This document shows, piece by piece, positions 3,001 through 15,490 of a stretch of DNA of 40,655 nucleotides. Position 1 is the stretch's first letter; each line of letters starts with the position of its first letter. Source of the stretch: Patellaria atrata CBS 101060 (Eukaryota); the NCBI GenBank assembly GCA_010093705.1, contig MU006102.1, positions 629,548-670,202 on the forward strand. The letters run 5' to 3'. A model generated the notes under the pieces. The model made no database searches. It was not told the origin of the DNA and saw nothing but the letters and a program-made list of their open reading frames with translations. Position numbers and translations under genes: made by a program.

Positions 3001-3065
3001 TGCACGTGTAACGGCTTTATCAGTGTTATAGAAAATAAGAGAAATATATTATATTATTAGATAAA

Positions 3066-4188
3066 TGTTACGGCCACAAGTTGTAGGAACATGCAGACAA
3101 CGAGTGACGGGAAGAAAGGAACACCACTCGGGGGAACTACGGGTGAAACAAGTGACAGAGAATCACGTGACCAGACAGTGGTCGCTGGACGCGCTGGTCG
3201 CAGAGAACGACCAACGACCAGAACGACCAGAACATAGGCAACTAAATTGGCTATGAAGGATAGGAATATTTAAGGACGGTCTTTCTCTCATGTATTTAGA
3301 TTCTTCGTAGTTATTCTTACCATCAATCTTACCCATAGATTTGGATGTTACGGTTTTGAACTTGACTTCACTTGTTACNNNNNNNNNNNNNNNNNNNNNN
3401 NNNNNNNNNNNNNNNNNNNNNNNNNNNNNNNNNNNNNNNNNNNNNNNNNNNNNNNNNNNNNNNNNNNNNNNNNNNNNNNNNNNNNNNNNNNNNNNNNNNN
3501 NNNNNNNNNNNNNNNNNNNNNNNNNNNNNNNNNNNNNNNNNNNNNNNNNNNNNNNNNNNNNNNNNNNNNNNNNNNNNNNNNNNNNNNNNNNNNNNNNNNN
3601 NNNNNNNNNNNNNNNNNNNNNNNNNNNNNNNNNNNNNNNNNNNNNNNNNNNNNNNNNNNNNNNNNNNNNNNNNNNNNNNNNNNNNNNNNNNNNNNNNNNN
3701 NNNNNNNNNNNNNNNNNNNNNNNNNNNNNNNNNNNNNNNNNNNNNNNNNNNNNNNNNNNNNNNNNNNNNNNNNNNNNNNNNNNNNNNNNNNNNNNNNNNN
3801 NNNNNNNNNNNNNNNNNNNNNNNNNNNNNNNNNNNNNNNNNNNNNNNNNNNNNNNNNNNNNNNNNNNNNNNNNNNNNNNNNNNNNNNNNNNNNNNNNNNN
3901 NNNNNNNNNNNNNNNNNNNNNNNNNNNNNNNNNNNNNNNNNNNNNNNNNNNNNNNNNNNNNNNNNNNNNNNNNNNNNNNNNNNNNNNNNNNNNNNNNNNN
4001 NNNNNNNNNNNNNNNNNNNNNNNNNNNNNNNNNNNNNNNNNNNNNNNNNNNNNNNNNNNNNNNNNNNNNNNNNNNNNNNNNNNNNNNNNNNNNCCTACCC
4101 TAGTGGTTGACCACGTTAAGTGAGAAGCCAGGCGCGTTTCTAGACTTATCCTGTTCTGTCTCGATAAGTATAGACTCCCGTTGTAACA
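3066..4188. mobile_element. LTR retrotransposon remnant(s), solo or nested LTRs spanning an assembly gap
   Basis: Begins TGTTAC (3066) and ends GTAACA (4188), the TG...CA inverted termini typical of LTRs. It has an internal TATA-like TATTTAAG followed by a CT-rich tract, further TGTTAC copies at 3346 and 3373, and TGTAAC at 3007. Flanks are AT-rich. No matching 5-bp TSD (ATAAA vs AAATA). Confidence 0.6.
3379..4093. other. Assembly gap (715 N)
   Basis: Run of N in the sequence. Confidence 1.
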
Positions 4189-4345
4189 AAATAATTATAT
4201 AATTAAAAGTTTATTAAAACTTTTTTTTTTTAGCTATTAAGATATAGAAAATAAGAAAAATATATTATATTATTTAATAAGAACTTTATCCTATTTAAAT
4301 AAAGATAAGTGCTCGTGATTACTAATATAATAACTAATCTATAGC
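4189..4345. repeat. AT-rich, RIP-like degenerate repeat relic
   Basis: Very TpA-rich. Contains TATAGAAAATAAGAAAAATATATTATATTATT (~4243-4274), a near-copy of ~3027-3058 on the other side of the LTR. Confidence 0.55.
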
Positions 4346-5461: not shown

Positions 5462-6847
5462 ATGCCCAATGAGAACCGAACCGACCCAGCGGTTGCACTC
5501 TACAGAGTTGTGGAGTTGAACGCACACCACTTGGCCCCATGTTTCTCTGTTGAAGAGGTCTCCCCCTTACAACTCATGTTCCCATCATTGTCAACCCATG
5601 TAACTCTAAATGAACAACATAAACAACCAATCGACCAAGATAACCCATCTTCACCCCTAATTACGCACAAGAGACCCTTCATGCCTTCCCAGTCCGGAAT
5701 CTCTTCGCCCTCTGGATACAGACCCATGTTTCCCGGGTTGACCGGCCAGTTGAGCCGTAACATCAAGCGCAGACGCGCTCTCGAAGACGATGGAGATGCA
5801 GATGATGAGGGAGAGATTCCAGTACTTCCTTATTCGAACCCTGATCCCAGTTCTGTTTCAAGCAGTTCAAAGCCCGCTTCACCGAAACGGAAACGTGGGC
5901 GGCCTCGTAAGAAATCCCAAACTCCATCTGCAAAAGAATACAGAACCACTGCAGATACCAAATTTGTCGTTACCGGTCCCCAACTGAGCACCGATAGCTC
6001 TTCTCAGATAGACACTCTACCCAAACGTAGCTCTGGCCGCTCTAGGAAGGTCCTCTTCAACCCGCTACCGGAAGACTCCACCGCACAGCGAGAACCCTAT
6101 CCACTGTTTTTGAACTCAGTAGCATCAACCCCAACTCAACCGCAGCACCTCCACCAAAGCGCAGCCGTGGCCATCCCCGTAAAGACGTGCCTCCTTATGC
6201 AAATCAGACATCTACACCATCCACCATGGAAGCAACCCCAGCTCCATCAGAACTAGCAACCTTTCCCTTTTCTTCTTCTTCTCCTCCCCCCTACTCCCTC
6301 ATTTCTCCTTCCCAACCCTCCAGAAGCGACTCAGGCTCATCACCTCCTTCCAATTCCGACTCACCCGGCTACACCAGTTCTTCATCCGAACCCCACAGTC
6401 CCGATTATTCCGGCTCCGGCTCCTCTCAGTCTTCCAATCTTGACTTTCTCGTCTATACAGCTCATTAGGACAGGATGGAGCTCATGTCTGGTCATGATGG
6501 GGTGAGCCCAACCGCTCTTGTTTATGCCGCATCCTGAGCCGAGGGAGAGATTGGTGGTTCGGCCTTTACCGCTGGGAAGTGCGATTGTTGTTGTCGAAAA
6601 CGAGGGCGAGAAGGGAATGAAGGGTATGGAGGGAGAGGTGGTGCTGGGTGGAGAATGAGAGGAGGATGAACTAGATGAGGGGCATGTGGATACTGGTGGG
6701 TAGAGAGATTGGATTAGGCGTGATGGGGTTTGGACGAGGAGGGTAGAGGATGTGGAGGATAGGGCGCAGGAGGAGGATGAGGAGGTCGAGGATGAGGGGG
6801 AAGAAGACGAGGAGGAAGAAGACTGGGGTTATTATGGGGATCAGTAG
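5462..6847 (+). pseudogene. Orphan low-complexity protein with an AT-hook, probably disrupted
   Basis: The 264-aa ORF contains KRKRGRPRK (AT-hook core RGRP). Coding-like S/P-rich sequence continues in another frame (6187-6468). An acidic E/D-rich frame (6524-6847) is interrupted by in-frame TGA (6656) and TAG (6701). Confidence 0.4.
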
Positions 6848-7693: not shown

Positions 7694-9021
7694 CTAAATA
7701 CTGAGAAATTGGTATCCCTTGTCCATCTCCCATGACCTCTGCACACACCCCCTAGCCATTTCCAATTGCTCATCCGTACGACAGACAAACACCTTCTTCC
7801 CTATTTCCACCACTCTCTGCTTAGACACGTCCGCATGCTTGTTTCTCTCTTCGTCGAGATCAAACCCCATGCACCTGAGCTTCTTTCCAACCTCTTTTCT
7901 TAGGTCAATACCTTTCTCTCCGATTCCTCCCGCGAAGACAAGACCATCCACTTTCCCCTCCAATTTCACGAAATAGGCTCCCACATACCCAGCCACCCGA
8001 TCCACAAACAGGTCAAACGCAATCCGGCATCCCTCATCAATCTCCCGGTTCGCAGAGATATGGCCAAAATCGGTAGTACTAGCTAAGGCCTTCCACCCGG
8101 ACTCCTTGTTCAGGATCTGCTCCGCCTGCGTGATATGCAAATCTTTAGTTGCGGATCTTGAAGGGGCGCCGGCGGAATGCGTATAATGAAACACCAAACT
8201 AGGATCGATATCCCCACTGCGAGTCGCGCCAGGTAATCCCCCTAGTGGAGTCAATCCCATGGAAGTATCAATGCTCTGACCATTACCAATGGCACAGGCG
8301 GATGCGCCAGAGCCTAGGTGAAGGGCTATAAAGGAGGTTTTTGATGGAGCCTTGTTGAGGTGAGAGGAGAAAGAAGATAGAATGGAGGCGTAAGAGAGCC
8401 CGTGGAAACCGTATTTGCGGAGTTTATTCTTAGACGCTATGGTGGGAGAAATGGCGTAGGTCCGCGTGGAAGCGGGGAGAGTGCTGTGGAAGGAGGTGTC
8501 AAAGAATGCGAGGTTGGTGGTGTTAGGAATGGCCTTACGCGAGGAGCGGATGATAGCGAGTGCTGAGGCATTATGTCTATATATGATTGATCAGCTTGTG
8601 AAGGGTTCGAACGGTCTTTCAGATGCACTTACAAAGGAGCAAGGTCAGAGAGTTTCTCGATATGCTCATAAGTGTCCTCGTTAAGTACTTTGGCTGTGTT
8701 GTAGTCACCTCCATGTACAACTCTGTGGCATGCGTATGCTGTGTTGTCTCTGTCTGACAGCTCTGGCAGGCCCTCATCCTCTTCCAAATGCTTTAGAATG
8801 TAGTTGAAAGCATCGTCCTGGGATTCAATATCGCTGAGCTCTTTTCCCTTGATTTTCTCCGGACCTCTATTGTATTCAAAAGTTGTTGGTGGTGCTGTCA
8901 ATCCATTTATTTCCACAACAGCAAGCTCTTGCGGGTCTTCGGATTTACTACGTGCTTTGTAAACAGAGACCTTAACCGATGATGAACCAGCATTGATGGA
9001 GAGGATGATCTTATTCTCCAT
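7694..9021 (-). CDS. ackA: Acetate kinase, 2 exons
   Basis: Exons 9021-8633 and 8576-7694. Motifs INAGSSSVK, HRVVHGG, LAPL|HN, FFDTSFH, RKYGFHGLSY, HLGSGASACAI, TSMGLTPLGGLPGATRSGDIDP, FAGGIGE and TDEQ. Confidence 0.97.
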
Positions 9022-9956
9022 TGTATGAATAAGAAAGATTGAAACTTCTTTCAAGGGAAACCATAGATCAAATCCGCCTACGCACTATACCTCGCATAGA
9101 CCTGATATTGGTTCACTTGTCGATGGGTTGTCAAGGTTCAATATTACATATAAAAGTATCAAACACAGAGCCTGATTGAGTTACAGGTAGTGACGTTAGA
9201 AGCTGCAGGGTAAGAGCTCGTGGAGCTCTCGCGGGCCGATCATTGGAACTGTTTCCGCAGTTATTAGGTATTGATAGAACTACATTGTACAGACTACTAT
9301 ACGATCAATCAAATATCTCGGCAAGATACGTGCGGCGCGAAAACAGTCTATCATGGCTACTGTTCTGTTTGAAAGAAAAAAAGTTTGTAGTCGACTTTGT
9401 TGAAACCGTGAGGTAGAAATAAGCTTTGGACCGTTTAGGGGCAAGAGGGAAGTTCCAATGCGATCTTCGTTGCCCTTTCTGCTGTTACAGATACAATCTA
9501 TATTCAAAACAGAGCAATGAATACCGTGAATTCGTTCAACCTTCTAGTATGAAAAATGGTATGTGGTATCATGAAATTGTTGTTTTACCAGCATCCTGTG
9601 TCTCACATCCCCTCGGTCTTTGCGGAGACAGAAACTCCTTTCAGCTACTTCACGTATGATAGCTAGATAGCAAGGTAATGGTCCAAGAGGCCCTGCTTGC
9701 CGTCTTCCGGATGTGCTGTATTTGTAATACTTCTATGAATAATGAATTTATATGGGTAAAGGCGAATATTCTATGCCAACAACTTTTCTTGCTGGGCAAA
9801 TAGGTCCGCATCAGCACCACGTCATAACTGAAAGTGCTACACCAGCTTAGGAGAGATATCGCTGCTACCTTAACTTACTCATATTTCCCCACAATATTCC
9901 TATACCTAATTCAACTACATTCCCTCGTCCTCAATTACGCTCTATTACTCATCATA
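9022..9956. promoter_or_regulatory. Shared divergent promoter region of ack and xfp
   Basis: 935 bp between head-to-head ATGs, with CRE-like half sites TGACGT (9191-9196) and ACGTCA (9819-9824). Confidence 0.55.
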
Positions 9957-12758
9957 ATGCCAGGCGAAGTGATTGACCGGCCAAATCCAGAGCCTTTGCC
10001 CTCGCAACTTCCAGACGACGTCTTGAATCTTGCTGTGCAGCTCGAAAAGACCACCCTACCAGAAGATGTTAATGAAGCTCTTAAACAGTTTCGTAGAGCA
10101 GCATGTTATATTGCTGCTGGTAAAGTCACCCAAGGCCTAAACAATGAACCTCAAGCTTACTGATAACAGCAATGATCTTTCTGAAGGACAATGTTTTTCT
10201 TGAACGTGACCTAACTTTTGACGATGTCAAACCCAGATTACTCGGTATGCTCCGAGAGCAGTCAGACTAGTATGTAACTAACGATCCAAAGGACACTGGG
10301 GGACATGCCCTGGCTTGACCTTGGTTTATTCACACCTAAACTACATCATTCGAAAACATGACTTGACAATGATCTATGTCGTTGGGCCTGGACATGGAGC
10401 TCCCGCAATTCTTGCTTCCTTGTGGTTGGAAGGTTCAATGGGCAAATTCATGCCTGAGTATAGCCGCACCAGACAAGGTCTACATAATCTTATTACGAAG
10501 TTCTCCGTAACTGGAGGTCCACCTAGGTAAGTATATCACCATAGCGGAAAAGAAAAGTCTAATCCTTTGCGTAGTCATATTAATGCAGAGACTCCAGGAG
10601 CCATCCACGAGGGTGGCGAACTTGGTTATGCTCTGGCTGTCTCATTTGGTGCTGTTATGGACAAGCCAGATCTCATCGTCACGTGTGTTGTGGGTGACGG
10701 TGAGGCAGAATCTGGACCTACCGCTACGTAAGGACATTCATGACCTTGAACTAGAAAGATTTTTAATGATTATAGTGCATGGCATGCATACAAGTATATC
10801 GACCCCGCTGAGTCTGGAGCTGTCATTCCCATTGTCCATGTGAATGGCTTCAAGATCAGTGAGCGAACGATATATGGATGCATGGACGACAAGGAAATCT
10901 GTAGTCTCTTTACGGGTTACGGCTATCAAGTTCGCTTTGTGGAAGACCTAGAGGACATTGACGCTGATCTGGGCAATTCTTTGGAGTGGGCCGTCGCCGA
11001 AATTTGCAAGATCCAGAAGGCAGCTCGTTCTGGGAAACCAATGCTGAAACCAAGATGGCCTGTATTGATTATGAGGACTCCCAAGGTAATCGATAATCCC
11101 TCTTCTACCATTTTGTATACAGAGTTACTGATTAATGAGTAGGGCTGGAGTGGACCCAAGAAAGTGGATGGTGAATTCATCGAGGGATCATTCCGGGCGC
11201 ATCAAGTTCCCCTGATGAAGGCAAAGACTGATGAAAACCATTTAAAGGATCTTCAAACGTGGCTCAAGAGCTACGGACCCGAGGAGCTATTCAATGAGGA
11301 CGGCATACCCAATGATAAGATTCTCAGCATCATTCCTCAGGATCCTTCAAAGATATTGGGCCAAGTAAAGGAGACGTATGATCCATATAGTCCTATCATG
11401 GTTCCCGATTGGAAGGATTTCGGTATCGAGAAAGGAGACGAACATAGCTGCATGAAAGCTTGCGGCGAGCTTATGGACAAGACATTCCAGGAAAATCCGC
11501 ACACGATCCGCATCTTTTCTCCTGATGAATTGGTCTCTAACAAGCTCGATGCCGTATTCAACCACACTGGCCGGAACTTTCAGTGGGATCAATTTTCCCG
11601 AACACAGGGTGGCCGTGTGATCGAGATTCTCTCGGAGCATTGCTGCCAGGGCTTTATGCAAGGATATACGCTCACCGGACGCACTGCAGTCTTCCCATCT
11701 TATGAATCTTTCCTTGGTATTATACACACTATGATGGTACAGTACGCGAAATTCGGGAAAATGGTGTGGAGGTCTCTATTTCAACGCTTTTCCAATTAGT
11801 ATACGCTTCCTACAGACTACTAACCACCGTATAGGCTGCTGAAGTTCCCTGGCGCAAACCTATCTCTAGCATCAACTACATCGAAACATCTACCTGGACC
11901 CGTCAGGAACACAATGGCTTTTCTCACCAAAACCCATCTTTCATCGGCGCCGTACTTAACCTCAAACCCTCTTTCGCCCGTGTCTACCTTCCCCCTGACG
12001 CAAACTGCTTCCTCTCAACCCTAGCACACTGCTTACGTTCCCGCTCGTATGTCAATCTCATGGTTGGCTCGAAGCAGCCTTCCCCAGTGTTTCTCAGTGT
12101 TGACGAAGCAGAACGCCACTGCCGTGCCGGCGCTTCAGCATGGCAGTTTTGTTCAGCCGACAGGGGCCGGAACCCGGATGTTGTCCTTGTCGGCGTTGGC
12201 GCTGAACTGACTTTTGAAGTCGTCAAAGCAGCTGAGTTACTGCGTGACCTCGCACCCTCGCTCCGTGTCCGCGTTGTCAACGTGACGGACCTCATGGTTC
12301 TCGGGACAGAAGGCCTGCACCCACACGCGCTTACAGACGATGCATTCGACGCCCTCTTCACCAAGGATAGACATATCCATTTCAACTACCACGGTTATGA
12401 AACTGAACTCGGCGGTCTCCTCTTTGGCCGTCCGAACACACGTAGGGTCAGCATCGCATCGTATGCTGAAGAGGGCACAACAACCACACCTTTCGATATG
12501 ATGCTCCTGAACGGCGTGAGTAGATACCATGTTGCGGAGATGGCAGTCTCGGCTGCGGCTAAGGTGAACGATGAAGTTGGATTGAGGCTTGTAGAGACAG
12601 TAGCCGAGATAAAGCATAAGGTGAGGAAGGTGAGAGAGTTTATCGAGCAGCATGGTAAGGATCCCGGCAATACGTACGATATGCCCAAGTTCGAGGGTTT
12701 GGGGGTGGGGACCGGTGAGGGAGGGCTGAGCGGAGGTGGTGTGTTGTATGAAGGCTAG
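9957..12758 (+). CDS. xfp: Xylulose-5-phosphate/fructose-6-phosphate phosphoketolase, 7 exons
   Basis: Exons 9957-10119, 10170-10244, 10292-10526, 10575-10727, 10776-11085, 11143-11763 and 11835-12758. Motifs [32 protein letters not shown]-binding GDGEAESG...[38 protein letters not shown] and [11 protein letters not shown]. Confidence 0.97.
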
Positions 12759-13116
12759 CCGTCGTAAAAAGCGGCAATATTGCTGCATGGGCGGATGCTA
12801 GAAGGTTTTTATGTATATTAGCAAAAAGTAGCACGGAGGAAGATAATCCACGATCCTGTTTCCAGTACAAGTGGACCTATACATAGCATTCCAAGCCCTT
12901 GTCTACATATGTCTCTCCCCCCCATACCATTTTCCCCTTTCCCACTTCCTATCACATGACGTAAAATGGGAAAGCCCGGGGAGAAGTTTGAATGCTACCA
13001 CTTTCCCCCAATCGCTCCTTCCCCCAATCGCCCCTTCCTCCAACCGTTCCTTCCCCTAACCCCTCCCTCCAAACATCTACTTTACATACAAACGACATTC
13101 CGGCTGCTTCCACTCA

Positions 13117-13269
13117 GGACCTGTGGCGCAGTGGTGGGAAACCCCCACCACACCGAATCGGGCCTAACTCACCAACACGTCCTGAGTTCGATCCTCGGCC
13201 CTGTCCGGGTCCAGCAGACTACCACGTACCTCTTCGGAGGGCGTGGGAACTGTTTTGCTTATTTTTTTT
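13117..13269 (+). ncRNA. Putative Pol III-transcribed, tRNA-derived structured ncRNA (or SINE/pseudo-tRNA)
   Basis: A box TGGCGCAGTGG (13124-13134); T-arm/B box CTGAG-TTCGATC-CTCGG (13182-13198); 7-bp stem GGACCTG/CGGGTCC; downstream hairpin capped by C-TTCG-G; T8 at 13262-13269. It does not fold as a canonical cloverleaf. Confidence 0.6.
13262..13269 (+). terminator. Putative Pol III terminator (T8)
   Basis: TTTTTTTT directly after the 3' hairpin of an element carrying A and B boxes. Confidence 0.55.
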
Positions 13270-13896
13270 ATTCATCTTGGAGATGTGGGGAGAGGGAATG
13301 AAGTTTTGATTTGGGATGGAAAGGGAAAGTGTGGTTGGGATAGGAGAGCGCTGCACATGTGGTTGGCTGATACCCCTTTTTTGGAGGGAATGAGCGTGCT
13401 TTTGTCTTTAGCAGGGTGATGGATTCGTTCATGAGATTAGGGTGTAATGGATGATGGATCAGGTGGGCATTCCGTTTCCGTTGATCTCGGAGGGTGGAGT
13501 ATTAGACATAACGTACGCTGCAGTTAATAGGGTGCTACGTGGTATCCTTGATATACATTGACAGATAATGGAATAGAAGGTAGGCCGGACAATTTAGTAT
13601 AATGAGAGGGAGGAGATTGACTAATATCGGTCTAATTGTGATGGTAAGGCGTGAGGAGTGAATCGGGAAGATAGAAATGATAATAAGGAGAGGTGGGAAA
13701 AGAGTGTGGAAAGTGTTATTAGGTATAGATGTTATCTATATTAGTATTAGACATTATATGCGAGTTTAGTGCCCTCAATCATACCTTACATTTCGCCGAT
13801 GAAAATGCTACACTATCCTAACCTCTCTCTCCTCCAAACGCCCGTACAATACCATTACCACATAAGATATCTACAAATCCCCCTTTTCCTCGCCAC

Positions 13897-15490
13897 TCAA
13901 GCCCTCAACTCACTTAAAATGTACGGACCAATAACCATAACAGCCTTCCAAAACACGCCGATCCCATTAACCAACTCCACCGGCTTCATAAATAGACTCG
14001 CGGCGCATATCCTGAGCCAAATCGCATACAGTGCAACGGTGAAGAAATGATAAACAAGCACGAGCGGATTACGTATAATGCCGGCGAGCAGACCAGACGG
14101 TTCAGAAACACGGATCCCACCCAGCTGGAAATATCGAAAGCAGCCGTTCTGGAGTGTGCGGAGATGTGCATCGTCAGCAGCGAAAAGGCTGTATAGCGCC
14201 ATCGCCAGGATATTAATTATCGAAGTGAGGTTTTTCCGTCGCCAGTGAAAGGTCTTCATCTGTTTGAGTACTGCTTTCGTGTTGTCGAATGAGGGTACTT
14301 GCTCAGGGCTTAGGAGTTGCGAGAGCAGGAGCGCATCGTTGAACGCAACAGTCATGCCGCCCCCTGTTAGGGGATGGCGCATGTTCATCGCGTCTCCTAG
14401 GATAATCATGCCAGGTATTCTGGCGGTGCTGGGAGGGAGGTAGCTGTTGGGCATGCTCCGCAGTTTTCCTTCTTCGAGAGCGGCTTTGAAGCTGGGGCGA
14501 ACGGATTCGGGAAGGGAGGGGAGGACGAAATTTTGCATGTGGCCCTTTACACCACCGTTTTTGACGGATGCGGACGCGCAGTTCTCGGGAATGTCGATTA
14601 GTATGCGAGTTTCGCGGGTTCCGATTTGGTAGATGAGGATTGGGGGACCGTCGGAAAGGACCACATGTCCGTGGAAAGGGCAGGGGAGAACGGTGTCGAT
14701 GAGTTCTAGTCCCCAAAACTTTGATCTTACGACAGGATTGTGAGGGATGTTCTCTTTGCGAAATTTAGAGGCGTAACCGTCGGCTATGATCGTTAAGCTG
14801 CCAAAAAACTATGATTGTAGAGGTCAGCAATACGTCTCAGGGGTGACCCGTATAGATGGACATACATAGTCTTTCTTCCCCCCCGTGGAACACTCTACTC
14901 CTAAAACCTGGCCGACATAATTATCCTTTATCAGGTCTACTGCGGTAGTCTCTACAACGGTCACATTTAGACACCTCATCGCCGCCACACGTAACTTTTG
15001 GACAAATTGCCCGTGGTGGAAGGATCGCCCCTCAGGTCTCGTTCCATCGGCGTTTTGTGGATATGGTATGTGTACAGGCTCCCCATAATAGGAGACCTCA
15101 TACCCCTTGCACACAACCGCATCGATATCCTCGAGACACTCTGTATAGCGCAAGCACATTGATCAGCCCCATCCACTCCCTACTATGATGACCTGCTCTT
15201 CGCAGAATGAACTAACCTCCCAACCCCAATTCTCTCAAAGCACGTACTCCACCGGGTTGCAGCAGTTCCCCGACTATTCTATCTGGCGTCTTTAAGCTAC
15301 GTTCTAGCAAAAGCACACTCCGCCCCTGCTTTCCCATTGCCACGGCAATCGCACAGCCAAAAATACCAGCCCCGACGATGACGATATCAGCATCATGGTG
15401 AAGTCTTCTTCTTTCTTCGCGCGGATCTAGGGGCGCGTTTGAGGAGGTGGCAGATGTTGCGACGGACGGCGAATCGAGCATTAGCGGCAT
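13897..15490 (-). CDS. ERG1: Squalene epoxidase (squalene monooxygenase), 3 exons
   Basis: Exons 15490-15217, 15140-14866 and 14808-13897. Motifs IVGAGIFG (FAD binding), PDRIVGELLQPGG, IADGYASKFR, LGDAMNMRHPLTGGGMTVA and INILAMALYSLFAA, plus hydrophobic C-terminal helices. Confidence 0.97.

Follow-up and report, generated by a model that had tools for sequence, protein, structure and literature searches.

What is the short element at 13117-13269 of this stretch of DNA (the whole 40,655 nucleotides of which are called the window below), in which a tRNA-like head is followed by a UUCG-capped hairpin and a run of eight T residues? The sequence-only reading preferred a single, undescribed non-coding RNA gene and held a tRNA-derived SINE as its alternative. 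Which of the two does this locus contain?

Layout, folding and known relatives of the element

The element sits in a 1.1-kb spacer that separates a convergent pair of genes. To its left is a + strand phosphoketolase, whose last exon runs to 12758 (XFP_C, E 6.5e-78), and to its right a - strand squalene epoxidase with its end at 13897 (SE, E 2.1e-84). The multi-exon phosphoketolase (~9834-12758, +) in turn forms a divergent pair with an acetate kinase fragment (8629-9054, -). The DNA derives from a filamentous ascomycete. The ORF for the mitochondrial helicase MRH4 is 97% identical to a protein of the Dothideomycete Patellaria atrata, with the next relatives at ~63%. Judged on this one protein, the nearest named relatives beyond that match are distant. 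Further upstream, an N run (an assembly gap) occupies 3380-4093, and a T run with AT-rich DNA is found at 4200-4320. An AT-rich, RIP-like isochore was considered at 3001-4000 (a bin of GC 0.158) and rejected, since the N run accounts for the low GC.

All parts of the element lie on the + strand. The head opens with a 7-bp closing, or acceptor-like, stem in which GGACCTG (13117-13123) pairs with CGGGTCC (13206-13212), followed by an A at 13213. Directly behind the 5′ strand of this stem is the A box, TGGCGCAGTGG (13124-13134), which begins at tRNA position 8. It fits the consensus TRGCNNAGTGG at 11/11 positions and is the sole match in the whole window on both strands. Where a tRNA has its D and anticodon arms there is instead an 8-bp hairpin, GTGGTGGG/CCCACCAC (13131-13151). 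A T-arm-like or B-box segment, CTGAG-TTCGATC-CTCGG, follows at 13182-13198. Measured against the B-box consensus, its part at 13183-13193 keeps the equivalents of G53, T54, T55, C56, A58 and C61. Seven extra bases (13199-13205) then separate the T-arm-like segment from the 3′ strand of the closing stem. Behind the head comes a 3′ module (13214-13257), in which an outer stem, GCAG...CUGU, surrounds the UUCG-capped hairpin (13222-13246). The element closes with T8 at 13262-13269, a Pol III terminator-like run or poly-T tail and one of only two runs of eight or more T residues in the whole window; a T4 upstream of it (13253-13256) is a possible candidate for a weaker stop. The closing stem, A box, 8-bp hairpin, T-arm letters, seven extra bases, UUCG hairpin and T8 are all where the sequence-only reading had put them.

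The type 2 Pol III layout that had been claimed (A box, B box and oligo-T) also holds. For the A box by itself, shuffling gives an expectation of 0.57 per window. An A box and a B box at tRNA-like spacing were found once in the window (at 13124) and in 0/1000 shuffles, whether or not a downstream T6 was required, and the combination of A box, B box and T run exceeds chance. Folding against shuffles gave similar z-scores throughout. The hairpin at 13131-13151 (-15.8 kcal/mol, z -3.69) and the UUCG-capped hairpin (-15.9 kcal/mol, z -3.62) each beat 200/200 shuffles, 13213-13269 folded at -19.5 kcal/mol (z -3.50) and the whole stretch at -62.6 kcal/mol (z -3.64). Within the thermodynamic ensemble of 13117-13213 the pairs of the closing stem have a probability of at least 0.995, and the five pairs of the T-arm one of at most 0.003. 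The T-arm is not predicted to form because the letters of the B box pair elsewhere. The T-arm that had been called intact is therefore intact as a sequence, but not as a fold.

Searches for known RNAs agree with the earlier view that the element is not a normal tRNA. ARAGORN found 0 tRNA genes in the whole window, and Rfam searched at an E-value of up to 10, on 801 bases and on the 118-base head, returned no tRNA. The rows that were returned at this cut-off were miRNA, snoRNA and lncRNA models at chance level (best E-value 1.6). At the gathering score there were 0 Rfam matches in the whole window, and the check on Rfam that had been proposed thus gave no credible match to a known family. The two translated frames searched were also without protein relatives: that at 13106 had 0 matches among 1.84 billion protein representatives, and that at 13107 had no candidate among proteins of 30-97 residues. 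Within the window, blastn at word size 7 found no second copy of the element and no LINE tail, the matches being chance matches of 9-14 bases only.

Several other candidates were tried and set aside. Thirty metagenome loci fitted a gapped pattern of the 3′ hairpin, but these fits were put down to chance, as their blastn likeness was confined to the pattern and they lay mostly on GC-rich, apparently prokaryotic contigs. By eye, a Helitron 3′ end was rejected for lack of a CTRR end, and an element with terminal inverted repeats for lack of inverted termini. A scan of the window for bacterial-type terminators gave 0 sites, which has no bearing on Pol III.

Copies of the element in contigs of the same organism

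Evidence for copies came from the contigs of two public runs (X1 and X2) of the same organism, which belong to one sample and one study and are probably DNA; the sample is perhaps the window's own source. Contigs were aligned to 12000-14700 at a likeness of at least 80%, giving 30 records in X1 and 32 in X2. The majority of these (23/30 and 25/32) were partial fits, most of them 80-95% alike, that continued into unlike flanks, and the unlike run-on fraction of the aligned records was 0.68 (X1) and 0.64 (X2). By likeness, the records of X1 fell into 6 at 99% or more, 2 at 95-99%, 10 at 90-95% and 12 under 90%, with 8, 2, 12 and 10 in the same classes for X2. Summed contig depth, which is not a copy number and is used here only for an order of ten copies and for an excess of the 3′ part over the head, was flat on both flanks at ~314 (313.7) in X1 and ~438 in X2; it rose to 1802.3 and 2500 in the bin 13092-13182 and to 3423.4 and 4677 in the bin 13183-13273, and stood at 6103 and 8597 at position 13242.

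The family unit is roughly 150-190 bp long, is dispersed and is present in the order of ten copies. Contig depth and loose ends place the repeat unit at 13107-13269 (+) for a likeness of at least 80%, and the 3′ module at 13214-13257 is the portion that the largest number of copies have in common. The copy-number check on the single-gene reading therefore went against it, the stretch being multi-copy in the contigs of both runs. The singular, undescribed RNA gene that had been preferred is not supported, since the stretch is a dispersed and diverged multi-copy repeat.

The borders of the matches were also informative. Other copies match the window from 13107 or 13118 onwards, and up to 13257 or 13269. 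Five records in X1 and six in X2 diverge directly behind 13269, and their flanks agree with one another at 0.58-0.60. Such mutually unlike letters indicate that the copies are at different sites and that the unit ends with the T run. Contigs of other copies also start or stop at 13182-13183, meaning that words of the B box are shared exactly between copies. The two home contigs themselves break and overlap at 13231-13258, inside the element, which is how a de Bruijn assembler behaves where words are identical to those of other loci.

Two records, 5 and 14 (contigs of 4093 and 14763 bases), contain the 3′ part of the element only, within 13169-13264 and in the interior of the contig. These could be 5′-truncated copies or a LINE tail that shares the 3′ module.

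Upstream of the head the picture is less sharp. Among the loose ends listed (12/37 rows), the letters ACAAAC are shared ~30 nt upstream of the head, a weak likeness seen by eye, and within pairs or triples of other copies the upstream 30 letters agree at 0.83-0.85. The stretch 13089-13106 (+) may be an upstream extension or leader, at a likeness by eye that is below the 80% threshold. Just 5′ of the element, 13003-13070 holds 4.2 copies of a tandemly repeated 16-bp unit (consensus TTCCCCCAACCGCTCC, 80% matches). Depth there is single-copy, which places the tandem repeat outside the dispersed family at 80% likeness.

The copies have diverged appreciably from that in the window. Among the pieces listed (16/63), two head pieces differ from the window copy at 8 and 9 letters of 77, two further pieces by 10 letters and 4 gaps of 89 and by 5 letters and 6 gaps of 76, and a tail piece by 5 letters of 58. 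Variation within the family peaks at 13198-13213, where the seven extra bases are followed by the closing stem's 3′ strand. Substitutions were found there at four positions (13202, 13205, 13206 and 13213), and 13198-13210 accounts for 9 insertion rows. Most copies have C at 13202 (depth 1717/2363) and G at 13213 (depth 827/1462), and the window copy differs from them at both positions. Within the hairpin at 13131-13151, other copies carry 13150 A>G, which preserves a G-U pair, and 13142 C>A in the loop.

A closer inspection of the 3′ hairpin points to wear of the window copy. When the loose ends before 13229 are joined to the next letters of the window, a perfect 10-bp stem is formed under the UUCG loop; at this place the window copy has one A bulged out and one G-U pair. 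The window copy is thus a worn version of a cleaner consensus. Selective constraint on 13229-13257, for which no variants were listed, was considered and rejected, because the threshold of a 5% share makes that absence an artefact. This stretch looks invariant partly because changes confined to a single contig drop under the 5% share at high depth. Record 14, for example, has 5 differences inside 13207-13264, all of which are absent from the variant list.

These data bear on the processing that the sequence-only reading had envisaged. The head had been seen as a possible RNase P/Z signal for the release of a ~50-nt hairpin RNA, and this finds no support, as the supposed 3′ acceptor strand falls within the indel-rich 13198-13210 and the T-arm is not predicted. 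The likening to a milR-4-type, tRNA-linked precursor also falls short, because such a precursor has a genuine tRNA fold. Here there is no cloverleaf, the seven extra bases break the stack of T-arm and acceptor stem, and the junction is hypervariable.

Origin of the repeat family

The stretch probably belongs, as a somewhat worn copy, to a low-copy family of tRNA-derived, SINE-like repeats made up of a tRNA-like head, a hairpin body and a poly-T tail. What marks a SINE has a counterpart here. The 5′ part is tRNA-related and holds internal A and B boxes. The unit is short (~13107-13269, with single-copy depth outside, where a SINE is expected to be under ~600-800 bp) and non-coding, its two frames being without relatives. 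Copies with unrelated flanks are dispersed in the order of ten within the one sample, and the T8 at 13262-13269 provides the simple-repeat 3′ end. Moreover, the excess of 3′ parts over heads fits either 5′-truncated copies or a tail that is shared with a LINE. The SINE that had been offered as the alternative is thus the better reading, in that dispersed and decaying copies were largely found. As candidates for a target-site duplication, the flanks of the window copy offered only two repeated 5-mers, CATCT (13074/13273) and TGCTT (13105/13256), which is at chance level given ~5.6 expected by estimate; for other copies the view of the flanks extended to 30-letter consensus rows.

How might such a family have spread? 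The A and B boxes would be bound by TFIIIC, which together with TFIIIB would recruit Pol III. Transcription would start ~10 nt upstream of 13117 (~13107), end within the T run and yield a ~150-160-nt RNA. A LINE of the same genome may supply a reverse transcriptase that recognises this RNA in trans by its 3′ hairpin and T tail, and that enzyme would then copy the RNA into new sites by target-primed reverse transcription. Insertion into the spacer of the convergent gene pair would have produced the window copy, which would later have gained its private changes. As its boxes are intact, it may still be transcribed.

Several observations count against a SINE. The window copy shows no target-site duplication above chance, no LINE was found in the window, and copy number is low (order of ten). 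In addition, the likeness to ~30 nt upstream of the head, seen by eye, seems to exceed the usual reach of an internally promoted element. This likeness could leave room for spread at the level of DNA, or for an upstream promoter element belonging to a gene family. If the repeat was spread as DNA, it would be a fragment or terminal piece of a transposon, or else a tRNA pseudogene carried along with its flanks by segmental duplication, and the Pol III boxes would be relics. Such an origin would suit a likeness that seems to extend upstream of any likely Pol III start, the agreement of 0.83-0.85 among the upstream letters of other copies, and a window copy for which a target-site duplication was not found among flanking 5-mers at chance level. 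We nevertheless regard it as unlikely, since depth is single-copy on both sides of a repeat that spans only ~160-190 bp, no terminal inverted repeats are visible and the downstream flanks are mutually unlike. Moreover, 5-6 records have their 3′ border right behind the last T of the run, as is expected of a Pol III transcript unit.

The upstream letters take on another meaning if the copies are a functional family of Pol III small-RNA genes, in which the head is an internal promoter or leader and the product is the UUCG hairpin RNA or the whole ~150-nt RNA. They would then be a possible upstream promoter element. The complete Pol III layout and the stable hairpins agree with this, as does the 3′ module, which is shared exactly by most copies and on which the home contigs break. 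One diverged copy with deletions on both strands of the hairpin also appears to retain the hairpin. Dispersed families of 5S or tRNA genes likewise have differing flanks, and Neurospora milR-4 is a fungal example of a tRNA-linked small RNA made by Pol III (PMC3547838). However, the copies are 9-16% divergent with indels, which is far above what is usual for working paralogues of a structured RNA, and the apparent invariance of 13229-13257 is partly an effect of the threshold. Variation is highest in the 3′ strand of the closing stem, the hairpin of the window copy is weakened, Dicer substrates generally have stems longer than these 10 bp and no Rfam family matches. A family of working genes is for these reasons distinctly unlikely. 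We consider improbable its lineage-specific form, a Pol III gene set in which the tRNA-like head drives the ~150-nt RNA or a released UUCG-hairpin RNA of ~45 nt and the 3′ module is under selection, e.g. as a source of small RNA or as TFIIIC-bound boundaries of neighbouring genes like the convergent pair here. A tRNA gene that is aberrant yet works, or a novel ncRNA gene in single copy, is highly improbable. The perfect A box at position 8, the invariant letters of the T-loop and the 7-bp closing stem followed by A speak for it, but ARAGORN and Rfam recognised no tRNA (0 genes, and nothing at an E-value of up to 10 even on 118 bases), there is neither a D stem nor an anticodon arm, the pairs of the T-arm have a probability of at most 0.003, and the stretch is multi-copy.

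With the SINE-like reading, a Dothideomycete lineage that has received little study would gain a probable SINE family; the reading carries little weight beyond annotation. For other intergenic islands in fungi that combine a tRNA-type promoter, a hairpin and an oligo-T, it suggests that copy number should be checked before new RNA genes are named. Should transcription and conservation of the family be found, fungi would have in it a rare example of a SINE-like unit co-opted as a small-RNA gene.

Comparison with known systems

The position of the boxes recalls the leader-promoter Pol III genes of yeast, RPR1 and SNR52, whose A and B boxes are in a 5′ part outside the functional product. Both of these genes are single-copy and yield a recognisable mature RNA (RNase P RNA and a C/D snoRNA, respectively). 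The window element differs from them in being multi-copy and in having no Rfam match to such a mature RNA.

A second point of reference is the tRNA-miRNA unit. The units of Neurospora milR-4 and of murine gammaherpesvirus 68 contain genuine tRNAs that are cut by RNase Z (PMC3547838). Like the window element, they place a hairpin behind a Pol III promoter of tRNA type and end in oligo-T. However, the head in the window is no cloverleaf and its junction is the most variable part, its hairpin has ~10 pairs only, and the unit as a whole is a diverged, dispersed repeat.

Poly-T tails are well represented among the SINEs of plants. Among grass SINEs, such tails are given for 26/61 families, with sizes that peak near 150 bp (PMC5585668), and Au-like SINEs are described as ending in TTT or TTTTT with a structured 3′ end that is common to RTE LINEs (PMC6007223). 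The window element shares with the poly-T SINEs of plants its order of tRNA head, body and poly-T tail, its size of ~150 bp and its structured 3′-terminal region before a short T run. These plant SINEs belong to another kingdom, however, and the likeness is one of anatomy, with no shared sequence claimed.

The closest parallels in fungi are again drawn from anatomy. A published account reports low-copy, tRNA-related SINEs of 140-493 bp in Aspergillus fumigatus, the AfuSINE2 families, whose heads do not fold as cloverleaves, and names Mg-SINE, Foxy and nrs1 as further tRNA-related SINEs of filamentous fungi (PMC5063351). The 3′ terminus of AfuSINE2-1a is given there as an ACT trinucleotide repeat (PMC5063351), whereas the unit in the window ends in a T run. 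In other respects the window element is like the AfuSINE2-type SINEs: it is short, with a degenerate, non-cloverleaf, tRNA-related 5′ part that carries both an A box and a B box, its 3′ part is unrelated to tRNA, its copy number is low and it is located between genes in gene-rich DNA.
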